Shown: piece by piece, positions 18,001 through 27,000 of the stretch | How the letters are laid out: the number at the start of each line of letters is the position of its first letter | Position numbering within the stretch: position 1 is the stretch's first letter | Assembly: GCA_031431875.1 (NCBI GenBank) | Contig: JANPEF010000024.1 | Location: forward strand, 1-64,000 | Direction of reading: 5' to 3' | DNA from: Candidatus Eiseniibacteriota bacterium | GTDB lineage: Bacteria > Eisenbacteria > RBG-16-71-46 > DASYSL01 | Length of the DNA stretch: 64,000 nt | Position numbers: made by a program

Positions 18001-21000
18001 GAGGTCGGGATGGAGGGCCAGCAGAAGCTCAAGGACGCGCGCGTGCTGCTGGTCGGCACCGGCGGGCTGGGCGCGCCGCTCGGCATGTACCTGGCGGCGG
18101 CGGGGGTGGGGACGCTCGGGCTGGTCGACTTCGACCTGGTCGACGCGTCGAACCTGCAGCGCCAGATCATCCACGGGACGAGGGACGTCGGCCGCCCGAA
18201 GATCGCCTCGGCGCGCGATCGTCTCGCCGACATCAACCCGAACGTGAAGATCGAGACGTTCGAGACGCGACTGACAAGTGCCAATGCGATGGAGATCCTG
18301 CGCGACTTCGACATCGTCGTCGACGGCACCGACAACTTCCCCACGCGCTACCTGGTCAACGACGCGTGCGTGCTGCTGGGCAAGCCGAACGTGTACGGCT
18401 CGATCTTCCGCTTCGAGGGCCAGGCCAGCGTGTTCGGCATGCCCGACGGTCCCTGCTACCGCTGCCTCTATCCCGAGCCGCCGCCGCCGGGTCTCGTCCC
18501 GTCGTGCGCCGAAGGCGGCGTGCTCGGCGTGCTGCCCGGCATCGTCGGCACGATCCAGGCGACCGAGACGATCAAGTTGATCCTCGGCGGCGGATCGCCG
18601 CTGGTCGGGCGATTGCTCCTGTTCGACGCGTGGACGATGAAGTTCCGCGAACTCAAGCTGCAGAAGGACCCGGCATGCGCACTGTGCGGCCCGAACCGGA
18701 CCATCGACGGGCTGATCGACTACGAGGTGTTCTGCGGGATCGGTGCCGAGACGACGGCCGCCGCCGCGCCGGCGGCGATCACCGCCACCAAGCTCAAGCA
18801 GCGGATCGATGCCGGCCAGGCCGTGCAGCTGATCGACGTGCGCGAGCCGCACGAGGCCGCGATTGCGCGCATCCCGGGCGCGCGCCTCATCCCGCTCGGC
18901 GAGGTCGTCGCGCGGGCCGGCGAGCTCGACCCCTCGCGCGAGGCGGTCCTGCACTGCAAGGGCGGGACGCGGAGTTCCAAGGCGATCGCGGCCCTGCGTG
19001 ACAGCGGCTACACGGGCCCGCTGGTGAACCTGACGGGGGGGATCGGGGCGTGGTCGCGCGAGGTGGATTCAAGCGTGCCGACGTACTAGACTGGAGCCCC
19101 GGTCCCGGCTAAGGAGTCCTTCCATGTTCGCACGCCTTCTGCGCTCCGCCCGTCGTGTCGCCCTTGCGGCGCTCCTTGCGCTGGCTCTCGCGTCACCGGC
19201 GTCCGCCTGCAGTTGCCTTCCTCCGCCTTCGGTCGAAGCTTCGCGGGCGGCCAGCCACGCGGTCTTCACCGGCATTCCGATCTCCGTCGTGAGCGCGGCG
19301 CCCGAACATCCCGACGACGTGTGGGTCGCGTTCCAGGTGACGGCGATCTGGAAGGGCCCCGTCACCGCGCAGTACGCCGTGCTGACCGGCGCAACCGGGG
19401 GCCTGTGCGGCGTGGACTTCGAGCTCGGCACGGAGTGGCTGGTCTACGCGTTTCCGGTGGACGCGGACCCCGACCCCGAGGTGTTCACGCACATCTGCTC
19501 GCGGACGGCCCGGGCCGCGGGCAATCCCGACATCGAGGCGCTCGGCCCGCCCCTGTCGACGCCCGCGCTCGCCCGCAGCTGGGGCCTGGTCAAGGCCATC
19601 TACCGCTGATCCGTCACGATCTTGCGGGGTGCGATCATCTCCATCCGCTGGACACCGCCTTCCCCGGTATGCATACTAAGTATCTAACCGGGAGAGTGTC
19701 ATGTCCGTCCGCCACAGCCTGCTCGCGCTCCTCGCCGAGGAGCCCACCCACGGGTACGGCCTCAAGTCGAGCTTCGAGAAGAGCACCGCCGGCGCCTGGC
19801 CGCTGAACGTGGGCCAGGTCTACACGACGCTCGCGCGCCTCGAGCGCGACGGCCTGGTCGAGAGCGACGCCGGGGGCGACGAGGAGCGGAGCACCTGGCG
19901 CCTGACGCGTGCGGGCCGCGGCGAGCTCGCCGCGTGGTACGCCGCCCCGGTCGACGACCACGCGGCGCGCGACGAGCTGGCGATCAAGGTGCTGGTGGCG
20001 CTTGCCGCCGGCTCGGTCGACGTCACGCGCATCCTCCAGGCCCAGCGCAAGGCCACGCTCGAGCGGCTGCAGGAGTGGACGAAGTCCAAGCGCCACGCCG
20101 ATCCCGAGGCGGATCTGGCGTGGCTCCTGCTGCTCGACGCGCTGATCCTCAAGGCCGAGGCCGAGGTGAAGTGGCTCGACCTGTGCGAAGAACGCCTGCG
20201 CCGTCGGCGCGGCCGGGCGCGGTCATGAGTGCGGTCGCCGTGCGAACGCGCGACGCTCTGCGCTTCGCTGCCGTGACGAAGGTCCACGGCACGGGCGCCA
20301 CCGCAGTCCGTGCGCTCGGCCCCGTGAGCTTCGCCGTCGAGGCGGGGGAGTTCGTCGCCATCATGGGTCCGTCGGGTTCGGGCAAGTCGACGCTCCTGTC
20401 ACTGGCCGGCGCGCTCGACGTCCCGACCGGTGGAAGCGTGTCGATCGACGGGCGCGATCTCGCGGGCCTCGATGCCGGGGCGCTCTCGGCGCTGCGGCGG
20501 CGCACGATCGGCTACGTGTTCCAGGACCTGAACCTGCTGCCGGGGCTCACCGCCTGCGAGAACGTGGCGCTGCCGCTCGAACTCGACGGCGTGCCGCTGG
20601 CCAGGGCGCGCGCCGCGGCCGAGGCGGCGCTCGCGGCCGTCGAGCTGGCGGCACTCGCCGGGCGCTTTCCCGACGACCTCTCCGGCGGCGAGCGCCAGCG
20701 CGTGGCGATCGCGCGCGCGTTCGTCGGCCCGCGCAGCCTGACGCTGGCCGACGAGCCGACGGGCGCGCTCGACTCGGTCACCGGCGAGCGCGTGCTCCAG
20801 CTCCTGCGCGCCCAGTGCGAGCGCGGCCTCACCGCCGTGCTGGTCACCCACGACGCGTCGCATGCGGCATGGGCCGACCGCATCCTGTTCCTCCGCGACG
20901 GCGCGATCGTCGACGAGACGCGGCCGCGCGCGTGAAGGCCGTCGCATTGCGCGCGCTCCTGCGCGTCGAGTTGCGGCAGCTCGCGCGTCACCCCGGCCGC

Positions 21001-24000: not shown

Positions 24001-27000
24001 CTGGCGAAGATCGAGGGACCGGATCACACGTGGAAGCTGCCCGCGACCACGCAGCGCCTGCTCGCTGCCGCACATGAGCGCGCCGCCGCCGACCCGCGGG
24101 TGCACGCCATGCTTCCCGATCTCCTCGGCAGCGTGCGGGCATTGCTGGCGCGGCTCGAGCGCGCGCCGGTCACCGCGCTCGCGTACCCGGGCCCGCCGGA
24201 CGAGGCGTGCGTCACCGTGGGCGCCCACGACCTGCGCGTCGCGCTGGCACAGGCGCTGGCCACGACGCGTGGCACCGCGGGAATCCCGCGCCTGCTCGTG
24301 GCCCTCGAGCATGGCGATTTCGCTCCGCTCGCGGCGCTCGCGCTCGAGCGAAGGCGCGGCAGCATCGGCTCGGCGATGGCGCTGTTCATGGATTGCGCGT
24401 CGGGCGCGAGCCCGGAACGGCGCGCCCGCATCGCCCGCGAGTCCGCCGACCCGGCGAACCTGCGGGGCGATGGGCTGGCCGCGCCGTTCTATCCCGAGGC
24501 CTGTGCCGCGTGCGGCGGGCGAGGGCTCGACCTGGGCGAGGCGTTTCGCGCACCGGTTGCCGCCGCGGCGCCCGTGCTCCTGGTCAGCGGCGCACTCGAC
24601 GCGCGAACGCCGCCATCGAATGCGGAGGAGGTTCGCGTCGGCCTTCCGCACGCCACGCACGTCGTGGTGACGGCGACCGGGCACGACGGGCGCGAGCTGC
24701 TGGCGCCCGAGTTCCGCGACCTGCTGCAGGCGTTCCTGCGCGGCGAGCCGGTGGCCGACGCCACGATCGACCTGCCGTTCCGGTTCGACGCGATCCGCCG
24801 CGAGTGACGGCTCCGCCGCCGGGTGCTAGGCTCCGCCCGTGGCCCAGCCCTCCGAAGGTGTCATCAAGTTCCAGCGCACGCACGACCCGCGACCGCTCGA
24901 GGAGCGGACGTACGGCGACGTCGCACGCCAGCTCGCTGGCTGGCGCGCCGTGTTGCGCCGCCTGGGCGGCATTGGCCAGGACCCGGCGCGTTACGACGGC
25001 GCGGGCTACGGCAACCTGAGCCTGCGCGTTCCGCCGTACGGCGCCGAGGGCATGGGGCGCCGGCGCTTTCTCGTCACGGGGACGCAGACCGGTGGCAAGC
25101 GCGCGATCGCCCTCGTCGACTGCTGTCTCGTCGAGAGCTACGACCTGTCGCGCAACCATGTGACCAGTCGCGGTGTGGCCGAGCCGTCGTCCGAGTCGCT
25201 GACGCACGGCGCGATCTACGATGCCGCGCCGTCGACGCGCGCGGTCTTCCACGTACATGCGCCCGAACTGTGGCGAGGCGCGCGCGCGCTGGGACTGCCG
25301 ACCGCGCGGCCCGAGGTGCCGTATGGCACGCCCGAGATGGCCCACGAGGTCGAGCGCCTGTTCCGCAGCGCCGCGCTCGGCGAGCACGGCATCCTCGCCA
25401 TGCTCGGCCACGAGGACGGCGTGATCGCATTCGGCGCCAGCGCCGAGGCCGCCGGCGCGATCCTCACGCGCCACTACGCGCGCGCGCTGGCGACGCCCCC
25501 GCAGTGAGGGTGCGCGGCCGCGACCTCCGCGCGGTGTGGCCCGAGGCCGACGGCGTCGCCTACATCGACCAGCGCCGGCTGCCGCATGCGCTGGAGTTCG
25601 GCCGGGCCCGCACGATCGAGGAGGCCGCGCACTCGATCGCCGACATGGGCGTGCGCGGCGCGCCCGCCATCGGAGTGTTCGCCGCGTACGCACTGGCACA
25701 TGCCGCGGGCCGCGATGCGACGCCGGCCGCGCTCGAGGCCGCACATGCGGCGCTCCTCGCCACGCGCCCGACCGCGATCAACCTGCGCCACGGCCTCGAC
25801 GCCGTGCGCGCCGCAGCGCCCGACCCCGTCGCGATGCTCGCCGCCGCTCACGCCTACGACGAGGCCGAGGTGGCCGCCGCCGAGGCGATCGGAGCGCACG
25901 GCCTCGTGCTCCTGAAGCCCGGCGCGCGCGTGCTCACCCACTGCAACGCGGGGTGGCTTGCCGTTCAGGACTGGGGCTCCGCACTGGCGCCGGTGTACAA
26001 GGCGGCGCGCGCGGGGCTCGATCCGTTCGTGTGGGTGAGCGAAACGCGGCCGCGCCTGCAGGGCGCGCGCCTCACGGCCTGGGAGCTGGCGGAGGAAGGC
26101 GTGCGCCATGCCATCGTCGCCGATGGGGCGTGCGCGGACCTGATGCGTCGCGGTGAGGTCGACGTGATTCTCACGGGCGCCGATCGCATCGCCGCCAACG
26201 GCGACGTGGCGAACAAGATCGGAACCTACGACAAGGCGTGCGCCGCACGTGTCCACGGCGTGCCACTGTACGTCGCGGCACCGCGGACGACGATCGACCG
26301 TTCGACGCCGAACGGAGAGGCGATCGCGATCGAGCAGCGCGATCCCGACGAGGTCCTGTGGATCGAGGGGACGACCGCGGCGGGGGAGACCGTCCGCGTG
26401 CGCGTGGCACCCGAGGGGGCGGCCGCCCGCAATCCGGCGTTCGATGTCACGCCGGCGGAGTTCATCGCGGGGATCATCACCGAGACCGGGATCGTGCCGG
26501 CCTCATCCGCGGGAATCGCGGAAGCGTTCCGGCAAAACTCTTGACGCCCGCACCCACGGCGACGATGCGAGGGCTTTGCCCGCCGCCCTCCGTGGGCTAG
26601 CATCGGGCCACCCAATCCGACGAGTCGGAACACGGTGTTCGGTTCCCCACACGAGGAGGATTCGAGATGTCCACGCAGACGGGTTACGTGCCCCTGGTGA
26701 TTGGCAGCATCGCGCCCGATTTCACGGCGGAGACGACCGAGGGTCCCATCCACTTCCACGACTGGATCGGCGACGGCTGGGCCATCCTCTTCTCGCATCC
26801 GAAGGACTTCACGCCGGTGTGCACCACCGAGCTCGGCTACATGGCGCGGCTCAAGCCCGAGTTCGACAAGCGCAACGTGAAGGTCGTCGGGCTGAGCGTC
26901 GACCCCGTCGCCAACCATGCGAAGTGGGCCGACGACATCAAGGAGACGCAGGGCTTCGCGGTCAACTTCCCGATGATCGGCGACACCGATCTCGCGGTGG

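Follow-up and report, generated by a model that had tools for sequence, protein, structure and literature searches.

Within the window (the whole 64,000-nucleotide stretch that was analysed), positions 19701-24807 of the plus strand hold three translationally coupled genes, which encode a PadR regulator, a MacB/LolD-type ATPase and a 1291-aa permease-hydrolase fusion. The padR and ATPase genes reported by the genome-wide survey upstream of the fusion are both present on the plus strand at the coordinates listed below. The architecture that it had described for the third gene, a permease and a hydrolase in one open reading frame, was borne out with identical Pfam figures: FtsX at residues 244-359 (two stretches), Abhydrolase_1 at 881-1252 and Abhydrolase_4 at 1207-1253. 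Both gene junctions are 4-nt overlaps, ATGA between padR and the ATPase gene (20225-20228) and GTGA between the latter and the fusion gene (20932-20935). The features are as follows.

19649..19677, plus strand: sigma-70-like promoter candidate, TGGACA-17 nt-CATACT (9/12 matches)
19667..19683, plus strand: PadR operator candidate, GTATGCATAC-N3-GTAT (conserved palindrome pair, overlapping the -10 box)
19701..20228, plus strand: padR gene, two-domain type, 175 aa (PF03551 63.7 bits, PF10400 40.4 bits, both above the cut-off)
20225..20935, plus strand: ABC ATPase gene of MacB/LolD/FtsE/YbbA type, 236 aa (PF00005 110 bits)
20932-24807, plus strand: fusion gene, 1291 aa, double-FtsX permease and Hip1/TAP-like alpha/beta hydrolase
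20932..23322, plus strand: YbbP-like type VII ABC permease, residues 1-797 (hydropathy, AF2 model, Foldseek, Pfam FtsX)
23323..23421, plus strand: junction, residues 798-830, with a basic stretch, helix 11 and an AxA-like site (hydropathy, fused/split comparison)
23422..24807, plus strand: predicted S33-like (Hip1/TAP-like) extracytoplasmic alpha/beta serine hydrolase, residues 831-1291 (PF00561 66.8 bits, PF08386 27.4 bits)

The fusion is not an assembly artefact, because its open frame is kept in a 98% identical locus (L001), in a genome of the same genus (G085, 97%; possibly the same record as L001) and, as a single frame, in 15 more fused loci from several phyla. The neighbouring genes in the window, for a ThiF/rhodanese protein and an IF-2B family protein, are unrelated to the cassette.

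A homolog search with residues 800-1291 returned 40 matches, 30 of which (P0004-P0033, 882-1488 aa) combine PF02687 with PF00561. These figures are close to the 38 matches and 32 FtsX fusions counted before, but the MMPL-PF00561 proteins of that earlier search were not reproduced, the MMPL family being absent from the 40 matches. Relatives of the hydrolase were located in 80 loci, and the permease lies directly upstream in 41 of them, either in the same open reading frame (16 loci) or as an adjacent gene (25 loci). In the split loci, among them that of the cultured Engelhardtia mirabilis Pla133, whose genome is complete (L044), the hydrolase gene sits directly 3' of the permease gene, often with a 4-nt overlap, and encodes its own Sec-type signal peptide. 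In the phylogeny, the cassette-linked hydrolases make up a single clade of 47 rows (SH-aLRT 100), from which 30 stand-alone enzymes are separate; fused and split states interchanged at least four times on well-supported branches. Three hydrolases of the cassette clade (L014, L024 and L027), with sufficient upstream DNA, have no permease alongside. As judged from these comparisons, the permease-hydrolase link is conserved and non-accidental. The covalent attachment that the survey had placed at the heart of the system does not hold as an essential trait, given the separate exported hydrolase in 25 of 41 loci and the repeated fusion or fission. Only the cassette genes were common to 37 compared regions, with no conserved MacA- or TolC-like neighbor, and the patchy occurrence of the cassette (in 10 of 151 genomes from the phylum) suggests an accessory role.

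All 34 related loci whose DNA extends far enough upstream contain the ATPase gene, and a padR homolog precedes it in 32 of them. In NCBIfam the ATPase scores best against DarD, MacB, LolD and FtsE, near 1e-55 (DarD 1.1e-55; YbbA 4.7e-50), and PDB matches include MJ0796 (1.4e-53), MacB (2.5e-53) and YbbA (7.8e-44). The Walker A (GPSGSGKST), signature (LSGGERQR), Walker B (LADEPT) and H-loop (VTHD) motifs are intact in the translation. Ahead of padR, a promoter scan of 19400-25100 returned two sites, whereas 50 shuffles averaged 0.0. The operator candidate belongs to a conserved (ATAC-N3-)GTAT-GC-ATAC-N3-GTAT palindrome pair. Its core, GTAT[AG][CT]ATAC, recurs across phyla in 29 of 33 padR upstream regions, as does ATAC-N3-GTAT (29/33), and many related loci carry TTGAC-like -35 boxes just 5' of it. 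In the 3.75-Mb genome of origin, the operator pattern matches once only with at most one mismatch, the reversed control pattern not at all, and the same search placed no small ORF or biosynthetic cluster under this operator. PadR and its putative operator travel with the cassette across phyla.

Hydropathy, positive-inside charges and an AF2 model (pLDDT 87.7) resolve the permease into 10 membrane helices, with an 11th at the junction. Two extracytoplasmic domains, ECD1 (residues ~49-232) and ECD2 (~485-684), lie between TM1 and TM2 and between TM7 and TM8, as in YbbP, and about 22 residues, with no HAAS domain, precede TM1. Among 41 related loci, ECD1 is always kept; ECD2 is dispensable and missing in seven. 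The fusion matched none of the NCBIfam permease families at E <= 0.01. The survey's note had likened the system to FtsEX and BceAB, but the top Foldseek match of the permease model was YbbP (9ge6_A, E 9.5e-20 over 869 columns; 9ge7_A, 1e-18), at an identity of only 16%. It leads MacB (2e-9), LolE and BceB (4e-9) by ten orders of magnitude in E. The same note had cautioned that an even number of spans would leave the hydrolase in the cytoplasm. With 11 helices and all K/R-rich loops on one side, the hydropathy, charges and AF2 model instead place it outside the cytoplasm, consistently with the Sec-type signal peptides of the split homologs.

Helix 11 (residues 807-825) was read from hydropathy, and the junction also has an AxA-like site, ARA|AG after Ala823; the AF2 permease model has a low-confidence helix at 803-817. 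An n-h-c signal-peptide layout with AxA-like sites marks the junction in 28 of 28 fused proteins, and at this same position the separate hydrolase gene of the 25 split loci encodes its N-terminal signal peptide. Because these 25 of 41 loci encode a separate, signal peptide-bearing hydrolase, helix 11 is best read as the retained signal peptide of the enzyme, and its covalent linkage as optional. The complete layout with AxA-like sites also means that the hydrolase may be cut off the permease at helix 11. The linker from TM10 to the hydrolase varies from 32 to 120 residues.

The catalytic triad, which the survey had left to be checked, was identified as Ser1002-Asp1223-His1251, with Ser1002 within GSSYG, and is invariant in 51 sequences, as are the oxyanion motif GGPG (888-891) and DQRG (919-922). 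Cys1155 and Cys1191 are near-invariant in the same set, a pair that we count as support for the predicted extracytoplasmic location. With these motifs preserved, both hydrolase and ATPase are predicted to be active enzymes. The proposed likeness to Hip1 was evident by sequence (PDB 7sfm, E 3.2e-13, residues 847-1024) and by fold: the AF2 model of the hydrolase (pLDDT 95.9) matched Hip1 (5uoh/7sfm) and TnmK1/K2 in Foldseek with TM scores of 0.62-0.71 and about 19-25% identity. We know of no Hip1 relative fused to a transporter. With Hip1 (Mycobacterium tuberculosis Rv2224c), Streptomyces TAP and TnmK1/K2, the enzyme shares the Ser-Asp-His triad, GxSxG, GGPG and the PF08386 C-terminal segment, and with the Hip1 group a cell-envelope location; unlike them, it belongs to a separate, uncharacterised, ABC permease-linked clade. 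PMC4022732 describes Hip1 as a serine hydrolase that is associated with the cell envelope and cleaves GroEL2. The nearest characterised relatives are not lipid esterases but a protease (Hip1) and biosynthetic enzymes (TnmK1/K2). Other relatives are fused to PDZ, TPR or S9/S15 peptidase domains, and one (P0034) to glyoxalase/bleomycin-resistance domains.

The closest described system is E. coli YbbAP-TesA (PDB 9GE6-9GE8), in which the type VII ABC permease YbbP, as demonstrated in 2025 (PMC12646458), carries TesA, a periplasmic hydrolase; the binding is experimental, and extraction of hydrophobic compounds for hydrolysis is its authors' proposal. In both systems, a MacB/LolD-type ATPase is paired with one FtsX permease, which has 10 helices, an internal duplication and ECDs at TM1-2 and TM7-8, and the partner is an exported serine hydrolase encoded beside the transporter. 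They differ in that TesA is an SGNH hydrolase with a divergent gene, whereas the enzyme here is S33-like, its alpha/beta fold bearing a large lid, and is encoded directly downstream in the same operon or fused via its signal peptide; the cassette also includes a PadR repressor with its operator, and some members are without ECD2. The variable linker and the seven loci missing ECD2 imply that a fixed seat between two ECDs, as for TesA on YbbP, cannot be general, and since the hydrolase fold is unrelated to TesA, with protease and biosynthetic enzymes as nearest relatives, the TesA substrate class is not transferable. An ATP-powered complex of ABC transporter and hydrolase being already known from YbbAP-TesA, the novelty claimed for the locus is lowered. 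The words 'fused', 'fusion' and 'PadR' are absent from PMC12646458.

Our best explanation, and a reasonably probable one, is a PadR-controlled, YbbAP-TesA-like module that extracts and hydrolyses an envelope compound with a hydrolase non-homologous to TesA; the E. coli extract-and-cut machine seems to have evolved here a second time, independently. Docking of the hydrolase on the permease, the class of substrate, the coupling of ATP hydrolysis to catalysis and repression by PadR are inferred, along the following lines. Two ATPase copies would power one permease, as the fold likeness to YbbAP (2:1 stoichiometry) suggests, and the permease would work together with the exported Hip1/TAP-like serine hydrolase. 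ATP-driven mechanotransmission would lift a hydrophobic or amphipathic molecule out of the cytoplasmic membrane's outer leaflet and offer it to the hydrolase for cleavage of an ester or peptide bond. The fusion probably arose when the permease gene ran into the signal peptide of the hydrolase. The resulting helix 11 would tether the enzyme outside the membrane, or free it there if signal peptidase cuts after Ala823. PadR bound to the palindrome over the -10 box would keep the operon off until a ligand or stress relieves repression.

Alternatively, a conventional exporter or resistance pump of the MacB kind could be co-expressed with a hydrolase that acts independently in the periplasm, where it breaks down the same compound or a related one; the fusion would then only secure 1:1 synthesis, and signal peptidase would free the enzyme. 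The complete signal-peptide layout of helix 11 in fused proteins, the free exported hydrolase of the split loci and the unconstrained linker length would all fit, as would the relative fused to bleomycin-resistance domains. So would the PadR gene, since drug or toxin pumps are often under PadR control. We nonetheless consider this rather unlikely: at least four recurrent fusions and a dedicated hydrolase clade point to more than loose co-regulation, no conserved MacA/TolC partner lies nearby for outer-membrane export, and in the YbbP precedent transporter and hydrolase form a physical complex (PMC12646458). An export unit for a ribosomal peptide or lipopeptide of the cell's own making, trimmed outside by the S33 peptidase as in peptidase-containing exporters, is highly improbable. 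The darobactin exporter ATPase DarD is the best NCBIfam match, but MacB, LolD and FtsE score equally; relatives with PDZ, TPR or S9/S15 peptidase domains do suggest peptide substrates. Against this, the 37 compared regions hold no conserved precursor-peptide or biosynthetic gene beside the cassette, the window neighbors are unrelated, and the operator pattern marks no such gene elsewhere in the genome.

An FtsEX-like regulator would move no substrate, its ATP cycle allosterically switching the attached or docked hydrolase as FtsEX does with EnvC/amidases, PcsB, RipC and CwlO. FtsEX systems do control extracytoplasmic hydrolases (PMC7668044 and PMC10694151), the permease here falls within their type VII superfamily, and its link to the hydrolase is tight and recurrent. 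The cassette, BceAB and FtsEX have in common an FtsX-domain permease, a MacB-like ATPase and a mechanotransmission architecture. This regulator is unlikely, however, since FtsX has four helices and one ECD and controls cell-wall hydrolases, whereas the permease here is a 10-helix, YbbP-like protein. Moreover, the hydrolase is not of a cell-wall hydrolase type, Pfam and the AF2 model contain no coiled-coil or autoinhibitory adaptor, and an accessory cassette under PadR control does not resemble a division function of the housekeeping kind. BceB, too, has 10 helices (PMC12646458), but it carries only the TM7-8 ECD and signals to a histidine kinase, unlike the extract-and-hydrolyse module favored here, with its constant ECD1 and PadR regulation.

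To our knowledge, acidobacterial PadR-paired FtsX-type permeases are without an adjacent ATPase gene. A padR gene directly upstream of an FtsX-domain protein gene is also the arrangement of these pairs (TIGR03433 padR_acidobact; HAAS-PadR dyads, PMC11237479), from which the cassette differs in its ATPase gene and in a permease without HAAS domain. The PadR protein matches TIGR03433 weakly, at 39.7 bits, far under the cut-off of 101.8.

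The cassette lies in DNA of about 70-77% G+C (around 19701-24807). It comprises the following sites and genes, each gene starting within the stop of the one before.

19649-19677: promoter-like site, TGGACA-17-CATACT
19667-19683: candidate PadR operator, overlapping the -10 box of the promoter-like site
19701-20228, + strand: PadR gene (175 aa; PF03551 and the C-terminal domain PF10400, both above cut-off)
20225-20935, + strand: ABC ATPase gene (236 aa; start overlaps the padR stop, ATGA)
20932-24807, + strand: permease-hydrolase fusion ORF (1291 aa; GTG start overlaps the ATPase stop, GTGA)

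The three genes and the Pfam assignments on the fusion (FtsX in two stretches, the best at 244-359; Abhydrolase_1 at 881-1252; Abhydrolase_4 at 1207-1253, by profile scan) reproduced exactly what the genome-wide survey's note had recorded. The ATPase belongs to the MacB/LolD/FtsE/YbbA type according to its Pfam, NCBIfam, and PDB matches, and its translation carries intact Walker A, signature, Walker B, and H-loop motifs. An assembly error does not explain the fused frame, because the same single frame was found in L001, a locus of 98% identity that bears the title Candidatus Eisenbacteria, in a genome of the same genus whose match is 97% identical (G085, by its contig number perhaps the same record as L001), and in 15 further loci of other lineages.

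In a search that sampled each species by a single genome, 467 stretches encoded relatives, and the 80 best of these were retained. The hydrolase was present in all of these 80 loci, and 41 of them carried the permease directly upstream, either in a single ORF with the hydrolase (16 loci) or as an adjacent separate gene (25 loci). In the 25 split loci, the permease ORF stops and the hydrolase gene follows at once, often with a 4-nt overlap, and the hydrolase begins with a typical n-h-c signal peptide. Splitting is not an artefact of metagenome-assembled genomes, because the two frames are clearly distinct in Engelhardtia mirabilis Pla133 (L044), a cultured planctomycete whose genome is complete; its split genes lie at about 338.0-343.1 kb of NZ_CP036287.1. 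The split locus L015, from a long-read assembly, is unreliable, since a stop codon interrupts its hydrolase frame and a frameshift its ATPase. A tree of 77 hydrolase domains, built after L015 (stop) as well as L041, L054, and L061 (short matches) had been dropped, placed all cassette-linked hydrolases in one clade (SH-aLRT, 100), apart from 30 truly stand-alone domains. This clade consists of 17 fused and 24 split rows plus 6 rows without a detected permease. Three of the latter (L016, L036, and L040) are located at contig ends, and L014, L024, and L027 have sufficient flanking DNA and no permease beside the hydrolase. Split planctomycete forms make up the basal cassette lineages, and the fused or split state changed at least four times on well-supported branches (six times by parsimony). 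Such recurrent fusion and fission is a Rosetta-stone pattern, which argues for permease and hydrolase working together, with a covalent link that is optional.

The segment joining the two proteins suggests how the fusion came about. Between TM10 and the conserved Trp831, all 28 aligned fused proteins have a basic n-region followed by 13-27 uncharged residues as the h-region, together with AxA-like small-residue sites (in the window, ARA followed by AG, with the site after Ala823). Because this n-h-c layout has been kept, helix 11, which lies between permease and hydrolase, is identified as the former signal peptide of the hydrolase; the fusion originated when the permease stop was read through into this peptide. 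Helix 11 would either stay as a tether or be cut by signal peptidase. A lipoprotein anchor via the Cys of helix 11 was discarded as a general feature, since this residue is not conserved in fused homologs.

Hydropathy assigned 11 membrane helices to the fusion (23-45, 233-258, 275-310, 328-353, 375-395, 400-428, 455-477, 688-712, 738-762, 775-797, and 807-825), and its K/R-rich loops all fall on one side of the membrane. The two large permease domains, ECD1 (~46-228) and ECD2 (~476-691), and the hydrolase (826-1291) are thus located outside the cytoplasm. An AlphaFold2 model of residues 1-830 (pLDDT 87.7) contains the same helices, with helix 11 spanning 803-817 at low confidence and followed by disorder, and agrees with the extracytoplasmic placement of the hydrolase, which the survey's note had left open. 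PF02687 matches the permease in two stretches with 39.7 bits (cut-off, 25.5), and the MacB/Lol-type domain between TM1 and TM2 is present, forming an alpha/beta domain at 49-232 in the model.

By structure, the permease most resembles Escherichia coli YbbP. Foldseek returned YbbP as the best match (9ge6_A, E 9.5e-20; 9ge7_A, E 1e-18; ~870 aligned columns), with MacB (2e-9), LolE, and BceB (4e-9) following ten orders of magnitude behind; isolated periplasmic domains were also matched (LolE 5udf, E 1e-3; MacB 3ftj, 3.3e-3; MacB 5lj8, 5.1e-3). YbbP is described as an internally duplicated, 10-helix permease whose periplasmic domains are inserted between TM1-2 and TM7-8 (sections of PMC12646458), and the window permease, a single 10-helix pseudo-symmetric unit with ECDs between TM1-2 and TM7-8, has exactly this topology. 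Identity to YbbP in the structural alignment is 16%. A PDB sequence search with the permease gave MacB as the best match (E 0.014), YbbP was not matched by phmmer against the PDB at E <= 1, and NCBIfam assigned no permease family at E <= 0.01; judged by sequence, the permease is not a YbbP ortholog.

The likeness to BceAB proposed in the survey's note was not borne out, because BceB ranks far below YbbP in Foldseek and the domain that is dispensable here is ECD2, not ECD1. In planctomycete loci, ECD2 (query ~486-680) is missing in 7 of the 41 permeases (L015, L025, L029, L030, L033, L034, and L060) and shortened in L042, L043, and L045, whereas ECD1 is retained throughout. BceB shows the opposite arrangement, as it keeps the TM7-8 domain only. 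Short permeases were seen elsewhere, too. At 7989-8597 of locus L019, between ATPase and hydrolase gene, only the last ~190 permease residues (query 611-799) were matched, reflecting either a truncated permease or a deletion, and two fused proteins from the database, P0006 (905 aa) and P0022 (882 aa), are of comparable shortness and contain a single FtsX domain.

The active site of the hydrolase is intact. Ser1002 (GSSYG), Asp1223, and His1251, a catalytic triad that had earlier gone unchecked, are invariant in an alignment of 51 hydrolase domains, as are GGPG (888-891) and DQRG (919-922); the near-invariant Cys1155 and Cys1191 would fit a disulfide in an oxidising compartment. The model (pLDDT 95.9) displays an alpha/beta hydrolase fold with a GxSxG nucleophile elbow. 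Among solved structures, TnmK1/K2 and Hip1 are closest to it in fold (TM 0.62-0.71, 19-25% identity; Hip1 5uoh and 7sfm, TM 0.70-0.71, whole chain, large lid), followed by prolyl iminopeptidases, and a PDB sequence search ordered these relatives in the same way. PF08386, the TAP-like C-terminal segment, scored 27.4 bits (cut-off, 21), and names in the ESM Atlas were generic only ('alpha/beta hydrolase', 'proline iminopeptidase family'). The hydrolase is a member of the Hip1/TAP/TnmK fold group, yet it belongs to an uncharacterised clade of its own. Hip1 itself is described as a serine hydrolase associated with the cell envelope that cleaves GroEL2 (abstract of PMC4022732). Clade-specific differences between cassette-linked and stand-alone hydrolases are limited to six positions. 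One of these is Glu1255 (24694-24696), four residues past the catalytic His; the Glu is present in 98% of the former, and the latter mostly have Phe there. The six residues were considered as a hint to a docking surface and set aside, because their positions could not be related to an interface.

Several relatives of the hydrolase (P0034, P0036, P0038-P0041, P0138, and P0147) are fused to other domains, namely, glyoxalase/bleomycin-resistance (twice), DUF3108, TPR, S9/S15 peptidase, TolB-like propeller, and PDZ, and this variety of partners marks the family as an often re-used module. The MMPL-hydrolase fusions listed in the survey's note turned up neither among 40 matches nor when P0035 and P0037 were scanned against Pfam. 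As for the substrate, the GGPG motif, sub-threshold matches to prolyl-aminopeptidase (TIGR01249, 45 bits; cut-off, 259.75), and the PDZ, TPR, and S9/S15 fusions make us lean towards peptide bonds; the glyoxalase/bleomycin-resistance domains of P0034, together with PadR control, lean towards a xenobiotic.

Every one of the 34 loci that extend 1500 nt or more upstream of the permease encodes the ATPase, and 32 of them encode PadR (L002 and L046 being without it), with PadR identities of 52-73% across phyla. A palindrome pair, (ATAC-N3-)GTAT-GC-ATAC-N3-GTAT, is conserved 5' of padR; its core, GTAT[AG][CT]ATAC, is present in 29 of 33 padR upstream regions, and the other four have variants. In the organism's own genome (3.75 Mb, 98% complete), the candidate operator is the sole match to this pattern at one mismatch or fewer. 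These features would fit a dedicated autorepressor acting by promoter occlusion. Regulation by HAAS-PadR sequestration (sections of PMC11237479) was ruled out, since no N-terminal cytoplasmic domain precedes TM1. Across 37 regions (36 loci and the window), the only common genes were those of the cassette and antisense shadow ORFs, and no MacA/TolC-like partner or biosynthetic gene is conserved beside it. A 9-locus flank cluster (Ser/Thr kinases) and a 5-locus cluster (including a histidine kinase) were taken as common paralogs. The cassette is single-copy in its own genome; its permease was found in 10 of 151 sampled genomes of the phylum (8 of 118 high-quality ones), and the cassette is also present in loci whose titles name Acidobacteriota, Planctomycetota, Gemmatimonadetes, and GN15. 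By this patchy spread it behaves like an accessory module.

Taken together, the cassette is most likely a four-part module of the YbbAP-TesA kind. YbbP binds the periplasmic SGNH hydrolase TesA (2025 study, sections of PMC12646458). The ABC-plus-hydrolase principle is therefore already known, and the cassette is a second, multi-phylum instance that offers naturally fused forms, a regulator of its own, and a host in culture. To our knowledge, no other ABC transporter-hydrolase complex of the YbbAP-TesA type has been described to date, and what this complex acts on in nature is not yet clear. Both systems share the permease fold, genetic linkage of an exported hydrolase to the transporter (here 16 fused and 25 adjacent among 41 loci), and, by analogy, possibly the proposed mode of working. 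They differ in the partner, which is SGNH TesA in one and an unrelated PF00561/PF08386 alpha/beta hydrolase with a Hip1/TnmK-like fold in the other. In the cassette, two ATPase copies would serve one YbbP-like permease per module, the exported serine hydrolase would take a membrane-derived hydrophobic or amphipathic substrate, and PadR would control the whole operon. The data establish the gene anatomy, the extracytoplasmic location, the intact motifs, the separate clade of cassette hydrolases, the repeated fusion, and the conservation of the operator; from these we infer that the hydrolase docks, which way the substrate moves, that ATP is coupled to the process, and that PadR acts as a repressor. 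The self-contained, ATP-powered envelope hydrolase of the survey's note is thus real as an architecture, but as one optional form of a four-part cassette that has a precedent. The observation stands, and its interpretation holds in part. Literature searches, with subscription journals outside their coverage, found no report of an FtsX-permease/alpha-beta-hydrolase fusion or of the PadR cassette, and a word search of PMC12646458 found no description of either.

How permease and hydrolase cooperate allows for other explanations. Complex prediction with ECD1 (45-236), ECD2 (480-690), and the hydrolase (826-1291) gave scores of 0.84, 0.87, and 0.86, with 0.00 and 0.01 for partner-replaced controls and 0.85 for an ECD2-replaced control; by the rule of the tool, this pattern weighs neither way on binding. 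A fixed seat like that of TesA on YbbP is argued against by TM10-hydrolase linkers varying from 32 to 120 residues, by the 7 of 41 permeases lacking ECD2 and the 3 with a shortened one, and by the permease-less L014, L024, and L027. That a pump and an unattached periplasmic hydrolase are simply co-expressed would suit the split forms and the retained signal-peptide layout, but it accounts less well for recurrent fusion and a dedicated hydrolase clade, and we consider it doubtful. An allosteric switch of the hydrolase after the manner of FtsEX agrees with the superfamily; the 10-helix fold, the type of enzyme, and the accessory, PadR-controlled nature of the cassette do not fit it and render it distinctly improbable. 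Peptide maturation or export, for which a conserved precursor or biosynthetic gene is missing, is very improbable indeed.

Within the YbbAP-TesA-like reading, we tentatively suggest, as an unlikely but specific possibility, an inducible resistance device. The motor would lift a membrane-inserted lipopeptide, depsipeptide, or similar amphipathic toxin from the outer leaflet for destruction by the docked S33 hydrolase, and either the toxin or the harm it does would be the signal for PadR; the extract-and-hydrolyse principle of YbbAP-TesA would then have arisen at least twice with unrelated hydrolases. The fused forms would in that event be natural single-chain versions, or polyproteins in which signal peptidase cuts at an internal signal peptide, an event that is rare in bacteria. 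More generally, the existence of a second, multi-phylum family, in which a permease of this kind has a hydrolase unrelated to TesA as its partner, suggests that type VII ABC motors serve in general, beyond E. coli, to pass molecules from within the membrane to a hydrolase docked on them. The repeated natural fusions lend themselves, as single-chain complexes, to structural work, the dedicated PadR and its operator provide a handle on the inducer and through it on the substrate, and the cultured E. mirabilis Pla133 with its complete genome makes the idea directly testable. Whether a former signal peptide becomes an 11th helix or a site of internal cleavage is a question of membrane-protein biogenesis in its own right.

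The genes flanking the cassette, a ThiS-ThiF/MoeB-rhodanese fusion (17665-19089, + strand) and an IF-2B-family (MtnA-like) protein whose Pfam match spans residues 277-559 only (24823-26544, + strand), are unrelated to it, and no terminator-like site was found within 19400-25100. A 161-aa exported protein is encoded at 19124-19609 (+ strand); it is not conserved beside the cassette in the other compared loci and gave no Pfam match even at E 10 and no meaningful PDB sequence match. Its mature end seems to begin with Cys-x-Cys right after the signal peptide, and it may bear a likeness to NTR/TIMP-type inhibitor modules.
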